64,000 nucleotides of DNA, from positions 96,001-160,000 of the IMG/VR virus record IMGVR_UViG_3300032219_002227. One strand, written 5' to 3'. The notes under the pieces were generated by a model, which did no database searches, was not told the origin of the DNA, and saw nothing but the letters and a program-made list of their open reading frames with translations. Source of the DNA: a virus (Duplodnaviria; Caudoviricetes). Shown here piece after piece: positions 26,406-34,459 of this stretch (the first letter of the stretch is position 1; each line of letters opens with the position of its first letter). The translations under genes were made by a program, and so were the position numbers.

Positions 26406-27938
26406 ATGAAAAGTATAGCAAACCAATATCGTGATTTGAAAGAAGGCAAAATGTCACAATTTAATTTTATGCGTAATTTACGTATGACTATGCCTCAATA
26501 TATTACTAATGTAACTTCATTTAAAGATGCTGTTAAAATTCTTAAAAATAAGTCTATTTTAAATGAAGCTGACGTTGCAGAAATGCGTTATCAATCCTCA
26601 GGCGGAGTAGATAATCCAGGAAGAGAAGATCAATCTAATTATGACATGGATAGTTTTATTAGAGAGCTGGATAGAGAACTAGAATACTATGAAAGAGAAT
26701 ATCCGGGTCTTGTAGCTTTTGTTGATAAATTAGGTAATAATGATGAAACAAATCCTAAATATCTCGATATTACAGATAGATACTTTGACGACCCAGCAGG
26801 CGCTGCTGCTGAATTTATTACCTTATTTAATAAACAAAACATTAATGAATTAGGCCCTGACGCAGAGAGAATGGCTGGTAACCCTGAAGAAGAGGCAGAA
26901 TATAGAGCAACTGCTATTAGAAAAAAAAGTAATGATGATGAAGATGATGAATTAGATGCTATTATTAAACAAATGGAAGATGAATTAGATAGTCCTGACA
27001 AATATAAAAATCAAGACTCTGAAGATGCATTAGGTGAGGATTTAAAAACTGTTAAAGAACCAAATCCAAATGCTGGTAAATGGAGATTGATGAGTATTGA
27101 TGGAAAAAGGGCATTAGCTAATAATTTTTTTGATTCTGAAAAAGATGCAAAAGAATACGCTAGAAAAAATATAAGAACAGATTATAAAACCGTAAAATTA
27201 AAGGATGAAAGATCTGTATACAGAAATATAGATGAAAGTAGAAAGAAAAAAGAACCAAAAAAAGAATTACATCCAAATCAAATTCATCCACAAGAATTAA
27301 GGATGGGTATTAAGGTTGAATTAGAACATACCGCTGATTTAGATAAAGCAAGAAAAATTGCTTTAGATCATTTAGCTGAAAATCCATTCTACTATACAGC
27401 TTTAAAATTAGCAGGTATTGAATCACCCTCAGCTCCTAAAGTTAAAGCACCTGTAGAGAAAAAGGCTAAAAAGAAAAAAGAAACAGCTGAATTAGTCGAT
27501 AAGGATAACCAAATGCAGAAGGTAAAAATGCCTAAAATTGTTAAAGAAGTTAGGTATAATACTTTAAAAGAACCAAGTCCTTTTATGAAAGAAGTTGAAG
27601 ACTTTATTGATAATACTCTTGGTTTAAATGTTATGTCTAAAAAACTAGAATTACAAGATACTCAAGATCCAAATAGAGTACTTTTAAGATATCAATACTG
27701 GGAAAAACTTCCTAAAGAAGCTCTTGATATTTTTAAAAACTCAGATAAGTTTAAAGTTGAAGAAGATATAGATGTAGAAGAAGAAAAAGCAGATTCATAT
27801 CTTTACTTTATAGAACCTAAATCTTCTTTATCTGAAAATCATTCTCGTCTTATGGCTAAATTAGAAGCATTAGTACGTGAAGCTATTAATGAATATTATG
27901 ATGGGCGTGATAATTTAGATGCCGAAAACGAATACTAA
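26406..27938 (+). CDS. Multi-module head-internal protein with a DUF5661-like domain
   Basis: ELRMGIKVELEH...KIALDHLAENPFYYT; modules separated by LNE/INE/IDE/VKE/LSE; C-terminal LEALVREAINE. Confidence 0.65.
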   Translation: MKSIANQYRDLKEGKMSQFNFMRNLRMTMPQYITNVTSFKDAVKILKNKSILNEADVAEMRYQSSGGVDNPGREDQSNYDMDSFIRELDRELEYYEREYPGLVAFVDKLGNNDETNPKYLDITDRYFDDPAGAAAEFITLFNKQNINELGPDAERMAGNPEEEAEYRATAIRKKSNDDEDDELDAIIKQMEDELDSPDKYKNQDSEDALGEDLKTVKEPNPNAGKWRLMSIDGKRALANNFFDSEKDAKEYARKNIRTDYKTVKLKDERSVYRNIDESRKKKEPKKELHPNQIHPQELRMGIKVELEHTADLDKARKIALDHLAENPFYYTALKLAGIESPSAPKVKAPVEKKAKKKKETAELVDKDNQMQKVKMPKIVKEVRYNTLKEPSPFMKEVEDFIDNTLGLNVMSKKLELQDTQDPNRVLLRYQYWEKLPKEALDIFKNSDKFKVEEDIDVEEEKADSYLYFIEPKSSLSENHSRLMAKLEALVREAINEYYDGRDNLDAENEY

Positions 27939-27939
27939 T

Positions 27940-28548
27940 ATGAAATTATTACTGATTGACCATACCCCATTTCAGCAAGCAAACCTTACCTTATTAGAAG
28001 GTAAAGGTAATAAAGATGGTTTAGTTACTCTTGTAGGTAAACTGCAAGCAGCTAACCAAGAAAATGGTAATAATCGTAAATATCCTTATAAAACTCTTAA
28101 GCGTGAAGTAGATAAATATATAGATGGTCCTATCAAAACACGTACTGCTTTAGGAGAATTAGATCATCCTGAAGCATCTGTTGTAAATTTAGCAAATACT
28201 TCTCACATTGTTACTAGTGTTTGGTGGGATGGAAATAATGTTATGGGTAAAATTCAATTATTACCTACACCTGCTGGCAACATTGCTAAAGCATTAGTAA
28301 TGGCTGGTATTCCACTTGGAATATCTTCACGCGGTATGGGTAGTGTTAAACAAATTGGAGAGGCAGTTGAAGTACAAGAAGATTTTGAATTATTATGTTG
28401 GGATCTAGTATCGGTACCATCAACACCAATGGCATACATGCAATTAGCTGAATCAAAGAAATTTAGACCCACAAAAGATTATAGTAAAGTAAATAGTTTA
28501 GTAACTGAAATTATTTGTAACCAAACAGGAGTTTGTCCTATTTGTTAA
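27940..28548 (+). CDS. Prohead core protease (T4 gp21-like)
   Basis: NGNNRKYP, GELDHP, GISSRGMGS, DLVSVPST; ATG 27940 preferred over 27919 because it avoids the overlap. Confidence 0.93.
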   Translation: MKLLLIDHTPFQQANLTLLEGKGNKDGLVTLVGKLQAANQENGNNRKYPYKTLKREVDKYIDGPIKTRTALGELDHPEASVVNLANTSHIVTSVWWDGNNVMGKIQLLPTPAGNIAKALVMAGIPLGISSRGMGSVKQIGEAVEVQEDFELLCWDLVSVPSTPMAYMQLAESKKFRPTKDYSKVNSLVTEIICNQTGVCPIC

Positions 28549-28695: not shown

Positions 28696-29793
28696 ATGTC
28701 AAACAAAGACTTATTCAAAGAGGCTATCGCCGACGCTAAAGCTGTCCGCGAAGCTGCGTTAGCAAACGCAAAAGCTGCTCTTGAAGAAGCTTTAGCTCCA
28801 GCAATTCAAAATATGATTTCTAGTAAATTACAAGAAATTGATGAAGATTTGGATGAAGTTGAAGATCTTGAAGAAGTAGATTTTATCTCAGCTAATGACA
28901 AAAGGAATGATTCTGATTTTATCAGAAAAAGAGCTATTGATGCAAGCCAAATGTCAGAAGGCGAAGAAGACCTAGAAGAAGATTTCGATTTATCTGAAAT
29001 TTTAGCTGAATTAAGTGAAGAAAATGAACTTGAAGAAGCTAAAGATAAGGATGAAAAGAAAGAAAATCTCTACGAAGATGAAGATGAAGAATCTGAATTA
29101 GAAACTGTAGGTGATTTAACCGTTGATGAATTTAAAGATGAAATCAGAGACATGATCAAAGATATTATCTCATCAGAAATGGGTGGTGGCGAAATGGCTG
29201 CTGCTGATGATGTAGTAGATGATGCTGAAGAAATGGCTGTTGATTTTAGCGATGAAACCGGCGGTGATGACTTACGTCAAGACACAGATGATGCTATAGC
29301 AAATGCTGAAGAAGATGACGAAGAAATCAACTTAGAAGAATTACTAGCTGAACTTGATTCTTTAGACGAAGCTAATGATACTGATGAAGTATATGAAGCT
29401 AAGAAAAAGAAAAAAACACCACAAGGCGAAGATAAAGAAGAAGAGATAAAAGAAGCTCTTAACACTATCAATACCCTTCGCACTGAACTTAACGAAGTAA
29501 ACTTGCTTAATGCTAAGTTACTTTATGTTAACAAAATTTTCAAGTCTAAGAACTTGAATGAATCACAAAAACTCAAAGTAATTGCTCAATTCGACAAAGC
29601 AACTACTGCGAAAGAAGCTAAAGTTATTTATGAATCTATGAGTAGTGCTATTGCAAAATCTGCTAAAAGCACAATCAAAGAATCATTAGGATTTGCTTCA
29701 AAAGCTGCTGGTATGGCTCCACAAAAACCAATTGTAGAAGTAAATGATACAGTTGCTAGATGGAAAATGTTAGCAGGTATTACTAAATTTTAA
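28696..29793 (+). CDS. Prohead scaffold protein (T4 gp22-like)
   Basis: LFKEAIADAKAVRE, very acidic centre with many LxE sites, LNEVNLLNAKLLY, C-terminal RWKMLAGI; immediately upstream of the capsid gene. Confidence 0.88.
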   Translation: MSNKDLFKEAIADAKAVREAALANAKAALEEALAPAIQNMISSKLQEIDEDLDEVEDLEEVDFISANDKRNDSDFIRKRAIDASQMSEGEEDLEEDFDLSEILAELSEENELEEAKDKDEKKENLYEDEDEESELETVGDLTVDEFKDEIRDMIKDIISSEMGGGEMAAADDVVDDAEEMAVDFSDETGGDDLRQDTDDAIANAEEDDEEINLEELLAELDSLDEANDTDEVYEAKKKKKTPQGEDKEEEIKEALNTINTLRTELNEVNLLNAKLLYVNKIFKSKNLNESQKLKVIAQFDKATTAKEAKVIYESMSSAIAKSAKSTIKESLGFASKAAGMAPQKPIVEVNDTVARWKMLAGITKF

Positions 29794-29824: not shown

Positions 29825-31429
29825 ATGAACGTACAACAACTCCTCGAATCATCTAACCAATATAAAGTGGTGATGGATGACGCTAAAAAGTTGTCAAACA
29901 AGTGGGCTAAATCTGGCCTTTTAGAAGGTATTAGATCTACTAATGACAAAAATACAATGGCTATTTTGCTTGAAAACCAAGCTAAGCAATTAGTAACCGA
30001 AGCTAACGTAACTGGCGGTACTAATAGTATGAATGGTGCTGGATACAATGCTGAGAACTGGGCTGGCGTAGCTTTGCCTTTAGTTCGCCGCGTATTTGGT
30101 GAAATCGCAGCTAAAGAATTCGTTAGTGTACAACCAATGAACTTACCTTCTGGTCTTGTATTCTATCTTGATTTCAAGTATGCTAATAACATCAGACCTT
30201 TCCGTTCTGGTGATTCACTTTACAGTGCTAATAACAGCACTAACGTAACTGATTTTGCTAACACCGCTTCTCTTTATGGTGCTGGTCGCTTCGGTTACTC
30301 TATCAATCAGTATACAGCTTCTGTTACTAATGCTTCTACAGGATCTGCTCAATGGTCTGATTTTAATCTTGATTCTAACTACTCTGCTTCTGCAGCTTCT
30401 AGTCAGTACAAGAAAATTTCTGTTCCATTACCTTCTAACTACGACGTAAACGCGGTTCGTGGATTTGTAATTGTTTCTGGTACAATTGCTGCTACTGATG
30501 TATTGCAAGCTTTCACTACTGTAACTAACAACACTGCTTCTTTCATTGTTACTGGTTCTTTAGTAGCTAGAGACATGTCTCCCGCCGCTGCTACTGTAAC
30601 ATTGTTCTACGATATCCAGAACACTCCTGAAAGTCGTGGTGATTTCGAAGATGGTAAAGCTAAAACAAATGCTCCTACCACTATCGATATTCCTTCTATT
30701 GACGTTCAGTTAAAATCTGAAGCTATCGTTGCTAAAACTCGTAAGTTGAAAGCACAATGGACTCCAGAATTCGCTCAAGATTTGAATGCTTATCATTCAA
30801 TCGACGCTGAAGCTGAATTAACTGGTATCCTTTCTCAATATATCTCTATGGAAATCGATCTCGAACTCCTTGATATGTTAATCCAAAACGCTTATACTGT
30901 TGATTATTGGACTGCTGTTAATAACAAGTCTATCACTTCTGCAGGTGTAACTTCTGATTTGGGTTACTACAACACTCAAGGTGGTTGGTTCCAAACTTTA
31001 GGTACTAAGTTACAGAAAGTTTCCAATATTATCCATCAGTTAACTTTACGTGGTGGCGCTAACTTCCTCGTAGTTTCTCCAACCGTAGCAACTGTATTAG
31101 AATCAATTCCAGGCTTTGCTACTGATGGTGATGGTGAGAAAATGGAATTCAACTTCGGTATCCAAAAGATTGGTCAGTTGAATAGCCGTTACAAAGTATA
31201 CAAGAACCCATACATGACTGAGAACGTAATTCTTATGGGTTACAAAGGTGCTCAGTTTCTTGAGTGTGGTGCTGTATTTGCTCCATATGTTCCATTGATC
31301 ATGACTCCACTTCTTTACGATCCTAATACCTTCACACCAAGAAAAGGTTTGATGACTAGGTACGCTAAGAAGATGATCCGTCCTGACTATTATGGTAAAG
31401 TATATGTTGCTGGTTTAAATACTCTTTAA
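29825..31429 (+). CDS. Major capsid protein (T4 gp23-like)
   Basis: LLENQ, LPLVRRV, VQPMNLPSGLVFYL, TRKLKAQWTPEFAQDL.AYH, FAPYVPL, FTPRKGLMTRY; probable maturation cut LVTE59|A. Confidence 0.97.
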   Translation: MNVQQLLESSNQYKVVMDDAKKLSNKWAKSGLLEGIRSTNDKNTMAILLENQAKQLVTEANVTGGTNSMNGAGYNAENWAGVALPLVRRVFGEIAAKEFVSVQPMNLPSGLVFYLDFKYANNIRPFRSGDSLYSANNSTNVTDFANTASLYGAGRFGYSINQYTASVTNASTGSAQWSDFNLDSNYSASAASSQYKKISVPLPSNYDVNAVRGFVIVSGTIAATDVLQAFTTVTNNTASFIVTGSLVARDMSPAAATVTLFYDIQNTPESRGDFEDGKAKTNAPTTIDIPSIDVQLKSEAIVAKTRKLKAQWTPEFAQDLNAYHSIDAEAELTGILSQYISMEIDLELLDMLIQNAYTVDYWTAVNNKSITSAGVTSDLGYYNTQGGWFQTLGTKLQKVSNIIHQLTLRGGANFLVVSPTVATVLESIPGFATDGDGEKMEFNFGIQKIGQLNSRYKVYKNPYMTENVILMGYKGAQFLECGAVFAPYVPLIMTPLLYDPNTFTPRKGLMTRYAKKMIRPDYYGKVYVAGLNTL

Positions 31430-31495: not shown

Positions 31496-31523
31496 ATATT
31501 TATATATAACCAAACAATTGTTC

Positions 31524-32192
31524 ATGAAGGAACCTAATCGTGAAAGAAAAAACGACATTAAAATTATCAATGCCGTTCAGTTAAATGAAGAGCAAAAGGA
31601 AGCAAAACGATTAATAGTAGAAAACCAAATTGTTATAGTAACAGGTAGAGCAGGATCAGGTAAATCATTAGTATGTGCTCAAGCCGCCTTAGATTTCCTT
31701 AAGAAAAAACAAATTAGCTGTATTTACAATACAAGAGCAGCCATTGAAGTAGGTAAAAGCCTAGGTTATTTACCAGGAGCATTAAGTGAAAAGTTTGATC
31801 CCTATATGGAAGCACTTGTTGAAAATCTTAATAAATGTTGTTCAAATAAAAACGAAGTACCTAACCTTATAGCTGAAGAAAAAGTAAAAGCATTACCTGT
31901 TCAGTTTATTCGTGGTAAAACAATTGACGATATTTTAATTGTAGAAGAAGCACAAAACCTAACTAAAGGTGAAATGCTAGCTATATTAACTCGCTTAGGT
32001 AAAACAGGTAAAATTGTCATTAATGGTGATAACGAACAAACTGATATCAAAACGTCAACGGGTGAAATAAACGGTTTAAGTTATGTTATCGAATTATCTA
32101 AAAAAATCGAAGAAATTAAGTGGATTAAATTGAAAGAGAACCACCGTTCCGACCTAGTAGGTAAAATACTCGAATACGAATACGGGAAGTAG
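31524..32192 (+). CDS. phoH: PhoH-family ATPase
   Basis: GRAGSGKS, LGYLPG...EK..PY, FIRG.T, EEAQN, LTRLG, GD..QTD, HRS.LV; ATG 31524 preferred over TTG 31518. Confidence 0.92.
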   Translation: MKEPNRERKNDIKIINAVQLNEEQKEAKRLIVENQIVIVTGRAGSGKSLVCAQAALDFLKKKQISCIYNTRAAIEVGKSLGYLPGALSEKFDPYMEALVENLNKCCSNKNEVPNLIAEEKVKALPVQFIRGKTIDDILIVEEAQNLTKGEMLAILTRLGKTGKIVINGDNEQTDIKTSTGEINGLSYVIELSKKIEEIKWIKLKENHRSDLVGKILEYEYGK

Positions 32193-32225: not shown

Positions 32226-33848
32226 ATGGGCGCTCAAGCAATCAATTTAAAAAGACTATGGGATGAATATTATGGCGACACGTCATATTTAAATCCTGTC
32301 AAATGTAATACACCATTTGAATATTACGACAATGATCCTGAGTTTGTTCGTGATGCAAAAAGCTGTACACGCTTTGTTGCACAACGATTAGGCGCTAGTG
32401 GATTAGGTCTTACACAACTTAATATTAGTGACCTTACAGTGTATGCTGCTTTTGAAGAAGCAGTTACTACATATGGTAACTTAGTTTATCAATATAAAAT
32501 CAGAGACAGTTATATCAATATTGAAGGATCACCTTCAGCTCCATTTAATAACAATACTGTTACTTATGTTAATAGTATTGATATAAACGCACCAGTAACT
32601 TGGTCAAGAGCTAGATTAGCTACTTGGACTAATATAGACAATAATGCTGCATTCTCTCAGTCTATTGTTGATCAAAACATATATGTAATTTCAGCTTCAG
32701 TTTCTAATTTTGTTTTACCAAATGAAGATTATGTAAAATCACTTACATTTGCTACTGAATATTACGATTCAAGCTCATTACAAACTATTGATTTAAGTGC
32801 TTATGTTTATAATCAATTAAACAAAATAGGAGGTCCTACAAGCGGCTCTACTATTACTTCTGGTAATAGTTTTGTTTATGTATTTACTACTTCACCTCAA
32901 ATAGCAGGTGGATCTGCAGTATTTGGTTCTGGATCTATTCCTACAGTTTATATTCAAGATAGTTTAGAACCTGAACTCAATAATAAAATATTAAGTAATA
33001 ATTTAGCTACTTTAACTACTACTATTGCTGAAGACTATGCTGCAGAAGCTGGAGTAGGAGGATATTATAATGTTATAACAGGAGCTATACCAATGGAAAG
33101 AGGAGTTCAAGACTATGATTTAAATACTTGGGCCGCTCAATCAGCATCATTAGAACCAGGCGATAGAATAGAAATTAGAAGAATATTTTATGAAGAACCA
33201 CCTGCAATTGTTCGTTACTTTGACCCATATGCCGGTACAGGTACTGGTATTCAATCATTGCTTGAATCGTTTGGCTTCGGTCAATTCTCTCCTGGTATTA
33301 ACTTCTTATTAATGCCTATTAACTTTGATGTACAAAAAATCCAAGCAATTGAATTTAATGATCAAATAAGAAAAGCAGCATATTCATTTAATTTAGTAAA
33401 CAATAAATTAAAAATATTTCCTATACCTGGTAGGGATATGAATTTATTTTTTGAATATGTAAAAATTAGTGATAAATTTAGCGTAATTAAGGATACTAGA
33501 AATAATGTTGTAACAGATATCATGAATGTACCTTATAGAAACCCAATTTATTCTAAAATTAATACTGTAGGTAGAACTTGGATATTCAAATATACATTAG
33601 CTTTAAGTAGAGAAATTGAAGCACATATTCGTATTCAATTTGCTAATGTTAATGTTCAAGGTGTAGGTTCACTTCAAGGATCTGAATTAGTAGCTGACGC
33701 TAGAACAGAAAAAGAACAATTAGTAACGGAGTTAAAGGAAATGTTAAATGAAACATCGCGTAAGGGACAATTAGAGCGTAAGCAACAAGAAGCCCAATTC
33801 CAGCGTGATACTTTACAACAAGTTCCTTTACCAATTTATATTTTCTAA
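32226..33848 (+). CDS. Neck/head-completion protein (T4 gp13-like) with a ~145-aa insertion
   Basis: AQRLG, YAAFEEAV, QDYDL, VRYFDPY, IQAIEFNDQIRK, WIFKYTLAL; position after capsid and PhoH. Confidence 0.75.
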   Translation: MGAQAINLKRLWDEYYGDTSYLNPVKCNTPFEYYDNDPEFVRDAKSCTRFVAQRLGASGLGLTQLNISDLTVYAAFEEAVTTYGNLVYQYKIRDSYINIEGSPSAPFNNNTVTYVNSIDINAPVTWSRARLATWTNIDNNAAFSQSIVDQNIYVISASVSNFVLPNEDYVKSLTFATEYYDSSSLQTIDLSAYVYNQLNKIGGPTSGSTITSGNSFVYVFTTSPQIAGGSAVFGSGSIPTVYIQDSLEPELNNKILSNNLATLTTTIAEDYAAEAGVGGYYNVITGAIPMERGVQDYDLNTWAAQSASLEPGDRIEIRRIFYEEPPAIVRYFDPYAGTGTGIQSLLESFGFGQFSPGINFLLMPINFDVQKIQAIEFNDQIRKAAYSFNLVNNKLKIFPIPGRDMNLFFEYVKISDKFSVIKDTRNNVVTDIMNVPYRNPIYSKINTVGRTWIFKYTLALSREIEAHIRIQFANVNVQGVGSLQGSELVADARTEKEQLVTELKEMLNETSRKGQLERKQQEAQFQRDTLQQVPLPIYIF

Positions 33849-34459
33849 TGGGACAATTTAGAGGAGTACAACGATATATTAATTTAGGAGACTGTGCTCT
33901 AGCAGATTTCCCGGATAGTGCTCCGACTGCTTCAGCAACAAAACCAGGTGTTCCTTCTGCTCCTCCTGAACCACCACCTGGAAGTAAAGGTGAAGGTGGA
34001 GGGCCAAACAATTATATAGATCAAGCAGCACAAGCTGCAATCAACTATTCTAATATGAAAGTTGGTTATTTTAAAATCGATTTGTATAAGACTAAAGTAA
34101 ATATGTATGGTGAATCAATTGAAAAGTGGTACTATCTACCATTTGAAATTAAATGTATGATTGAAAGAGGTGATTTTGCCTATACAGACACTGAATATGG
34201 ACCTGATGTTAATCAAAGTATAAAAGTAATTATACCTAAATTAAATCTAATTGATTTAAATTTTACTCCTGAAGTAGGAGATATAATGACTGACCAAGAA
34301 AAATATTATGAAGTTCATACTGTAGATAGATCATTTATAACAATACCAGGAAGTGGCTATGCAGGTTCTTCTTTAGGAACTCCAGGTCAAGTAGTACTAT
34401 TTACATTGAATGCTCATCTAACAAGAACAACAAAACTTAACTTAATTCAATATAGCTAA
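33848..34459 (+). CDS. Neck protein (T4 gp14-like head closure) with Pro/Gly-rich N-terminal region
   Basis: VGYFKIDL..TKVNMYGES..K, PEVGDI....KYYEV; follows the gp13-like gene. Confidence 0.7.
   Translation: MGQFRGVQRYINLGDCALADFPDSAPTASATKPGVPSAPPEPPPGSKGEGGGPNNYIDQAAQAAINYSNMKVGYFKIDLYKTKVNMYGESIEKWYYLPFEIKCMIERGDFAYTDTEYGPDVNQSIKVIIPKLNLIDLNFTPEVGDIMTDQEKYYEVHTVDRSFITIPGSGYAGSSLGTPGQVVLFTLNAHLTRTTKLNLIQYS

Follow-up and report, generated by a model that had tools for sequence, protein, structure and literature searches.

A beta-barrel inserted in the neck adaptor of a T4-like phage is probably a diverged homologue of its clade's capsid insertion domain

Can a domain that is built into the major capsid protein of a tailed phage reappear in the protein that joins the head to the tail? 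The question is raised by a neck gene in a 64,000-nucleotide stretch of viral DNA (positions 96,001 to 160,000 of IMG/VR record IMGVR_UViG_3300032219_002227, Caudoviricetes), which was analyzed at its full length and is called the window here. A preliminary description, made from the letters alone, had labeled the gene gp13-like, had aligned by eye an insert in its product with the insertion domain of the gp23-like capsid protein, and had proposed that a capsid surface domain was recruited into the neck. The coordinates that it gave were right: 32541-32975 encodes residues 106-250 of the neck open reading frame (ORF), and 30302-30622 encodes residues 160-266 of the capsid ORF. The features on which the question turns are the following.

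32226-33848, + strand: gp13-type neck (head-tail adaptor) protein gene, 540 aa (protein P0001)
32226..32540, + strand: N-terminal part of the neck protein before the insert; profile positions 24-56 align to T4 gp13 16-48, with T4 domain boundaries from PMC12929587
32541..32975, + strand: lineage-specific insert, aa ~106-250, with a predicted beta-barrel core at aa ~125-245 (AlphaFold2 model md04c9a964a0a)
32976..33848, + strand: remainder of the neck protein, its C-terminal core, with what is left of domain II, the C-terminal helices and the portal-binding end; T4 gp13 241-297 is matched by profile positions 270-327
29825-31429, + strand: gp23-like major capsid protein gene, 534 aa (protein P0002); Pfam Gp23, expect value (E) 2.7e-77; phrog_138, E 2.2e-72; T4 gp23 chains, E 3e-29
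30302..30622, + strand: predicted capsid insertion-domain beta-barrel, aa 160-266 (AlphaFold2 model mf88e9247dca4; core at model residues 51-155, with a predicted local distance difference test score (pLDDT) of ~90)

We investigated the identity of the neck protein, and the gp13-like label was borne out by a profile match to T4 gp13 and by phrog_211, in line with the precomputed label PF26809. A profile of 29 insert-less IMG/VR homologues matched the T4 gp13 chains of 9mkb (9mkb_A6) and 9lu4 (9lu4_D) when searched with hmmsearch against the PDB (E 5e-9). Two collinear segments were matched, profile positions 24-56 with gp13 16-48 (the N-terminal helices) and 270-327 with gp13 241-297 (the C-terminal helices). 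Alignment of the neck family to T4 gp13 with hhalign gave a probability of 95.2% (E 2.8e-8), and only the C-terminal helices were aligned. The family phrog_211, 'head-tail adaptor Ad2', matched P0001 (E 1.7e-5) and 29 of 29 relatives. The precomputed Pfam label PF26809 (Phage_T4_gp13), of which no mention was found in the literature searched, was attached to P0001 and all of the listed relatives, and the same name was found in the ESM Atlas. The neck family has over 7,900 members in the protein collection, and the cultured relatives of the ORF are Flavobacterium phage immuto, where it is annotated as 'putative head completion protein', and Microcystis phage Mel-JY01. Judged from its sequence, ORF 32226-33848 encodes the gp13-type neck adaptor of a T4-like myovirus that is related to Immutovirus and has not been cultured.

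In T4 gp13 (PDB 9mkb, 9mof and 9lu4), residues 3-51 and 239-300 make up a four-helix bundle, domain I; domain II (52-192), the 'swing' domain, lies at the periphery, where its anchor region (90-157) extends between the portal and the shell and touches the P domains of gp23; and domain III (190-239), which binds fibritin, is an addition specific to T4 (PMC12929587, PMC12929629). The neck protein of the window resembles T4 gp13 in its homologous, collinear N- and C-terminal helical segments, in the place of its gene, which follows the protease, scaffold and capsid genes in a head-neck module, and in having a peripheral middle region that accepts lineage-specific additions, which in T4 is the fibritin-binding domain III. 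It differs in length, with 540 residues here against 309 in T4, and T4 gp13 is without the beta-barrel of ~140 residues that is found here soon after the second helix. No counterpart of domain III of T4 gp13 was identified in the neck protein of the window. The insertion point corresponds approximately to T4 residue 65-75, ~20 residues after the second helix, which would place it early in domain II at the periphery of the ring; this T4 numbering is an extrapolation, because the hhalign alignment to T4 gp13 covers the C-terminal helices only.

The insert itself was examined by comparison with homologues that lack it. At the place where P0001 has ~140 residues, three database phages have ~20 in the alignment. 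Across 83 homologues and the window protein (phmmer and MAFFT), residues ~113-250 of P0001 were missing from 70 neck proteins, which carried a loop of ~20 residues instead, and the other 14 of the 84 (13 homologues and the window protein) carried 166-310 residues at the site. The insert is thus real, as the preliminary description had held, and canonical gp13 is indeed without such a domain, both in T4 (309 aa) and in 70 of the 84 homologues. In a maximum likelihood tree of the neck core, from which the insert columns had been removed and in which the 13 full-length insert-bearing homologues were placed, these 13 rows formed one clade (support of 100 in the Shimodaira-Hasegawa-like approximate likelihood ratio test, SH-aLRT; stem length 0.59) that was nested among insert-less lineages. 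An exhaustive phmmer search with the insert alone against 1.84 billion representative proteins matched only 10 clusters, and the full sequences of six of these were all neck orthologues with the insert at the same position. There was a single gain of the insert, in the ancestor of one subclade.

The insert was also examined for signs of selection. The ratio of nonsynonymous to synonymous substitution rates (dN/dS) against three close relatives was 0.28-0.38 for the insert and 0.07-0.13 for the core, and the insert evolves 2-4 times faster than the neck core. The insert is a maintained, faster-evolving domain, maintained because its dN/dS is 0.28-0.38. One could take it instead for a non-functional segment, either what is left of a mobile element or intein in decay or a stretch of low-complexity sequence that has expanded, as its richness in S, T and N, its faster evolution and the lack of any Pfam family might suggest; Pfam run on the insert alone returned only Peptidase_M26_C at E 0.023, below the cutoff of that family, and this match was discarded. 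However, none of the 14 insert-bearing homologues has an interrupted reading frame, W, S, Q, N and Y residues stay invariant down to ~35% identity, the fold that AlphaFold2 predicts is compact and has ordered strands and helices, and the DNA composition of the insert matches the rest of the neck gene. Together with the dN/dS values, these observations largely refute a non-functional insert, which we regard as very improbable.

Some of the insert-bearing neck proteins (666-684 aa) hold a second domain nested inside the insert. It is 122-137 aa long in seven loci (L007:2480-3379, L008:6319-7194, L010-L013 and L015:2395-3339) and in P0133, and a shorter, more divergent extra segment is present in P0132. 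The nested domain is S/T/G-rich with recurring TGS motifs, and it is present in 7 of the 13 insert-bearing neck proteins; on the tree, it was gained or lost at least 2-3 times. Comparison with hhalign led us to reject the idea that it duplicates the capsid domain or the base insert, with probabilities of 0.6% and 0.1%, respectively.

We investigated the proposed relationship between the insert and the capsid domain at the level of sequence. The by-eye alignment was at chance level as a pairwise comparison: its 25-residue stretch scores 26, with 6 identities, and the best ungapped stretch of 25 residues in shuffled sequences scores 29 +/- 4.4 on average; 79% of the shuffles reach 26. Its register nevertheless returned when profiles were compared. 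With hhalign, the insert family (18 sequences) matched the full-length capsid family (47 sequences) with a probability of 73-88% (E 3e-5 to 3.5e-6), and on the full-length capsid profile the match fell on the insertion-domain region in the register first drawn by eye, the three shorter matches included; the four matched strings lie at neck residues 132, 166, 216 and 239 and at capsid residues 175, 207, 238 and 260. Against capsid residues 110-300 alone, the probability rose to 94.4% (E 9.4e-8) over 79 columns, in which P0001 ~129-205 is paired with P0002 ~172-250. The score was 42.3, compared with 12.0 +/- 2.2 (maximum 18.9) in 150 column shuffles of the capsid-domain alignment, ~14 standard deviations above these, and 12.8 with the reversed capsid-domain template. 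When 12 neighboring gene families were compared with the insert profile, the capsid family scored 50.5 and the others 7-16, and the neck family scored 36 through the overlap of its own flanks. The similarity was found both with the capsid domains of phages that have the neck insert (88.7%) and with those of phages without it (92.1%). No other ORF in the 173-kb genome matched the insert profile or the capsid-domain profile, and neither profile found anything meaningful among PDB sequences. A by-eye pairwise alignment that is at chance level can therefore still flag a real remote homology.

Structural comparison was carried out on AlphaFold2 models of the insert and of the capsid region, which were folded in separate, template-free predictions, with the alignment of the respective family as input. 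In the capsid region, the model has its core at P0002 160-264, with low-confidence linkers on either side (aa ~122-159 and ~267-293). When the secondary-structure strings assigned by DSSP to the two models were mapped onto each other through the hhalign alignment, three-state agreement was 67% over 128 positions, and it was ~40% (range 34-55%) when the strings were slid. The order of the secondary-structure elements was the same in both models, including a helix of eight residues at identical aligned positions.

Searches of predicted-structure libraries led from both models to gp23-family proteins. In BFVD, searched with Foldseek, the insert model had one strong match, an entry of 523 aa (E 1.3e-3, probability 1.00, TMq 0.43), and the next match was at E 0.1; the sole strong match of the capsid-domain model was the same entry (E 9.9e-7, TMq 0.47). 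This entry was identified as the major head protein of Rhodothermus phage RM378, because its length matches Rm378p141 and because a second UniParc id, of a protein of 661 aa, matches Rm378p119, with a gap between the ids equal to the gap between the gene numbers. RM378 is a member of the same clade, and its major head protein has a homologous insertion region. In the ESM Atlas, the best row for the insert model was a cluster in which 45% of the members carry PF07068 Gp23 (template modeling (TM) score 0.51, 124 residues aligned), and rows 2-4 were unnamed clusters of 167-188 aa at TM ~0.5. Profile similarity to the capsid domain was thus found, and the scores to gp23-family proteins (TMq 0.43 and TM 0.51) lay above ~0.4, the level below which the preliminary description had counted the folds as different. 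In the PDB, searched with VIA-align, both models superposed on the same chains over the same ranges, although with modest Z scores (5.5 or less and 3.7 or less): 7d3e_A (1270-1371 and 1270-1369), 8ram_O (1176-1286 and 1176-1284), 6k2l_B (6-127 and 6-126) and 8i4m_A (599-684 and 596-684). These shared neighbors are six-stranded barrels, namely the FNR-type FAD-binding, CusB, LumP and Upf1/Sen1 1B barrels, DUOX1 and 8i4m_A, and the best PDB superpositions for both models were with the barrels of the FNR FAD-binding, CusB/MexA, riboflavin synthase/LumP and Upf1/Sen1 1B families. The best Foldseek match of the insert model in the PDB was to CBM3 modules at E 0.25 and was not used.

Several observations weigh against homology of the two domains. 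Pairwise identity between the neck insert and the capsid domain is ~13%; BLASTP with whole proteins and with segments found no significant match between neck and capsid, the segments giving E of 4 or more; and phmmer --max with each segment against all 268 ORFs of the window returned self matches only. When the capsid-domain hidden Markov model (HMM) was run against the whole genome, the neck ORF was the best non-self match, in the same register, but at E 0.36 it was not significant. Both segments are rich in S, T, N, A and G and poor in charged residues, and the shared composition could inflate the similarity. The insert model has a mean pLDDT of only 58 (60-78 in the core) and was built from a shallow alignment of 18 sequences with an effective number of ~2.7, the aligned part of the RM378 protein was not reported by Foldseek, and the predicted fold is a common small barrel type. 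The agreement in predicted fold, which the models suggest is shared by both domains, was reached through common neighbors and not by superposing one model on the other, and is thus indirect but consistent.

From such observations it could be argued that the insert is a small beta-barrel that shares composition but not descent with the capsid domain, and that the matches, by convergence or chance, reflect a common fold type; the missing pairwise similarity, the low Z scores to generic six-stranded barrels, the shared composition and the modest pLDDT of the insert are all in line with this. The column shuffles, however, control for composition, and the hhalign score lies far above them. No other family among the 12 neighboring ones matches the insert, the sequence register coincides with the secondary-structure register of two independently built models, and the top match in two structure libraries is a gp23-family protein and not a generic barrel. 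Convergence or chance is thus an unlikely explanation.

Another explanation is that the capsid domain and the neck insert were each derived from a third source, a mobile accessory barrel passed around among the structural proteins of phages. The very low identity, which implies an old split or fast divergence, would fit such a source, as would the unnamed clusters in rows 2-4 of the ESM Atlas search, and accessory domains, such as Ig-like ones, do move among phage structural proteins. Yet the 10 clusters found in 1.84 billion representatives include, as far as checked, neither a capsid protein nor any other family, no further ORF in the genome matches either profile, and the only named structural neighbors are gp23-family proteins. 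We consider a common third-party source quite unlikely.

We conclude, with a probability of roughly 0.75, that the insert in the neck protein is homologous, though diverged, to the insertion-domain barrel of the clade's capsid protein, and that one subclade acquired it in its neck gene a single time and has kept it as an exposed accessory domain. The direction of transfer was inferred to be from the capsid gene to the neck gene, because all 47 capsid proteins examined carry the domain and only one neck clade does. The suggestion that the domain was recruited into the neck thus fits the phylogeny, with a single gain in a single clade, the direction being read from the distribution.

The capsid domain was also compared with the insertion domain (I domain) of T4. 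P0002 122-293 falls between the segments that align to T4 gp23 63-133 and 252-478, and the domain was present in all of the 47 capsid proteins. The T4 I domain consists of 60 residues that are inserted in the E loop and clamped onto the neighboring subunit (PMC9958956). The domain here occupies the same place in the capsid chain as the I domain of T4 gp23/gp24, and as E-loop linkers flank the T4 domain (PMC9958956), long low-confidence linkers flank this one; it differs in size, with ~105 residues against 60, and in T4 the I domain is found in the capsid proteins only. T4 gp23/gp24 was not listed as a structural or sequence neighbor of either model or of the capsid-domain profile, an absence that does not exclude a relationship. 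The preliminary description, which had treated the capsid domain as a T4-like I domain, was therefore supported as to its position in the gp23 chain, but no likeness to T4's own domain was detected. The label 'insertion domain' is justified for the capsid barrel by its position in the aligned chain, and not by any homology shown to the T4 domain.

Only one gp23-like ORF was found in the 173,246-bp genome, and no gp24-like (vertex-type) capsid paralogue was detected in the whole genome with the full-length capsid HMM, the next match being at E 0.43. Because no such paralogue was detected, the pentons are presumably built of the same capsid protein or of one that has diverged beyond recognition. 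A relative, IMGVR_UViG_3300028025_003477, whose neck protein is 83% identical, has two tandem full-length gp23-like genes (L006:1260-2861 and L006:2918-4612). Their products are 79% identical overall and near-identical outside residues ~120-300, and they are strongly diverged, with indels, inside the insertion-domain region. This pattern suggests two variants that differ only in the surface domain, or a specialized vertex subunit.

How might such a barrel work in the neck? By homology with T4, twelve copies of the neck protein would sit under the portal. In each copy, the module of ~140 residues, with a predicted small beta-barrel as its core, replaces a loop of ~20 residues that would lie early in the peripheral domain II. 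Gained once and then held under purifying selection, the module has accepted a further nested domain in some members, and this indicates that the insert is solvent-exposed. The twelve barrels would then surround the neck ring like a crown, on its outside and immediately beneath the capsid. They could serve as a protein-protein clamp where head and neck meet and grip the shell around the portal, much as the anchor of T4 gp13 domain II touches gp23, or, in an alternative role, they could bind a partner for which the capsid domain is also a docking site. By analogy with T4, a clamp between head and neck, or a docking site that the neck would have in common with the capsid surface, appears the most likely function, which is the weakest inference of the analysis. 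It is possible, and we propose it only tentatively, that the twelve barrels copy a patch of the capsid surface below the portal vertex, either by extending the inter-subunit clamp of the capsid itself to the neck, which would brace and seal the unique vertex, or as a site that recruits the decoration or fiber protein that docks on the capsid insertion domain, roles close to those that the preliminary description had imagined. Complex prediction with capsid residues 60-534 and insert residues 20-150, run without controls, gave a score of 0.00, which speaks neither for nor against binding.

The neck gene belongs to a T4-like head-neck module that is encoded on the + strand of the window, which is part of a single contig; the source genome has 173,246 bp and ~31% G+C. 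Three further genes of the module are the following.

27919-28548, + strand: prohead protease (phrog_207, E 1.5e-54)
28696-29793, + strand: acidic scaffold-like ORF
31518-32192, + strand: PhoH-like ATPase gene (Pfam PhoH, E 3.4e-49)

The PhoH-like gene lies between the capsid and neck genes, an unusual place inside a structural module, and it is found at the same place in Flavobacterium phage immuto and Microcystis phage Mel-JY01. Downstream, an ORF of 203 aa (33848-34459, + strand), whose start overlaps the stop of the neck gene and whose product has a proline/glycine-rich N-terminal stretch, matched no Pfam or PHROG family. No gp14 homologue was recognized by Pfam and PHROG scans among the ORFs downstream of the neck gene, and the 203-aa ORF is by position a candidate for a gp14-type second neck protein, without detected homology. 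Upstream of the prohead protease, a highly charged ORF of 510 aa (26406-27938, + strand) matched DUF5661 (E 6.6e-11) and no PHROG family. In immuto (NC_055915), the gene at the scaffold position, just upstream of the capsid gene (L001:863-2104), is annotated as 'DNA polymerase phi-like protein', and this label is probably a misannotation of a prohead scaffold that arose from a low-complexity acidic region. The neck gene was found in one sequencing run (0.93 of the sampled words), which is labeled only 'metagenome', and freshwater, lake and sediment rows had small shares.

Two parts of this picture are already known, namely that gp13 proteins carry lineage-specific additions, as domain III of T4 does, and that phage structural proteins share accessory domains of the Ig-like kind. 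Promiscuous Ig-like accessory domains on phage structural proteins were reportedly described by Fraser et al. in 2006. The barrel resembles these domains in being a surface-exposed beta domain that is common to different virion proteins (capsid, tail and neck decorations in their case) and in being gained or lost on otherwise conserved scaffolds. It differs from them in fold, as its neighbors are the six-stranded barrels of the FNR FAD-binding, membrane-fusion-protein and Upf1-1B types, and in that Ig-like domains are optional terminal appendages, whereas this barrel is an integral part of the capsid protein throughout the clade. The literature searches turned up no account of a homologue of a capsid insertion domain in a neck or adaptor protein.

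It is usual to regard neck adaptors and HK97-fold capsid proteins as modules that are conserved and separate from each other, and descriptions of the T4-type insertion domain have so far concerned capsid proteins only. The results presented here define a clade-specific capsid insertion-domain fold that appears distinct from that of T4, and they suggest that redeployment within the virion is open to integral capsid domains and not to Ig-like appendages alone. If the proposed function is true, the neck, a different part of the virion with a mismatched symmetry, would have received a copy of an interaction of the capsid lattice. The sister lineages with and without the domain, some of them with a nested domain, would constitute a natural experiment on the stabilization and decoration of the portal vertex.

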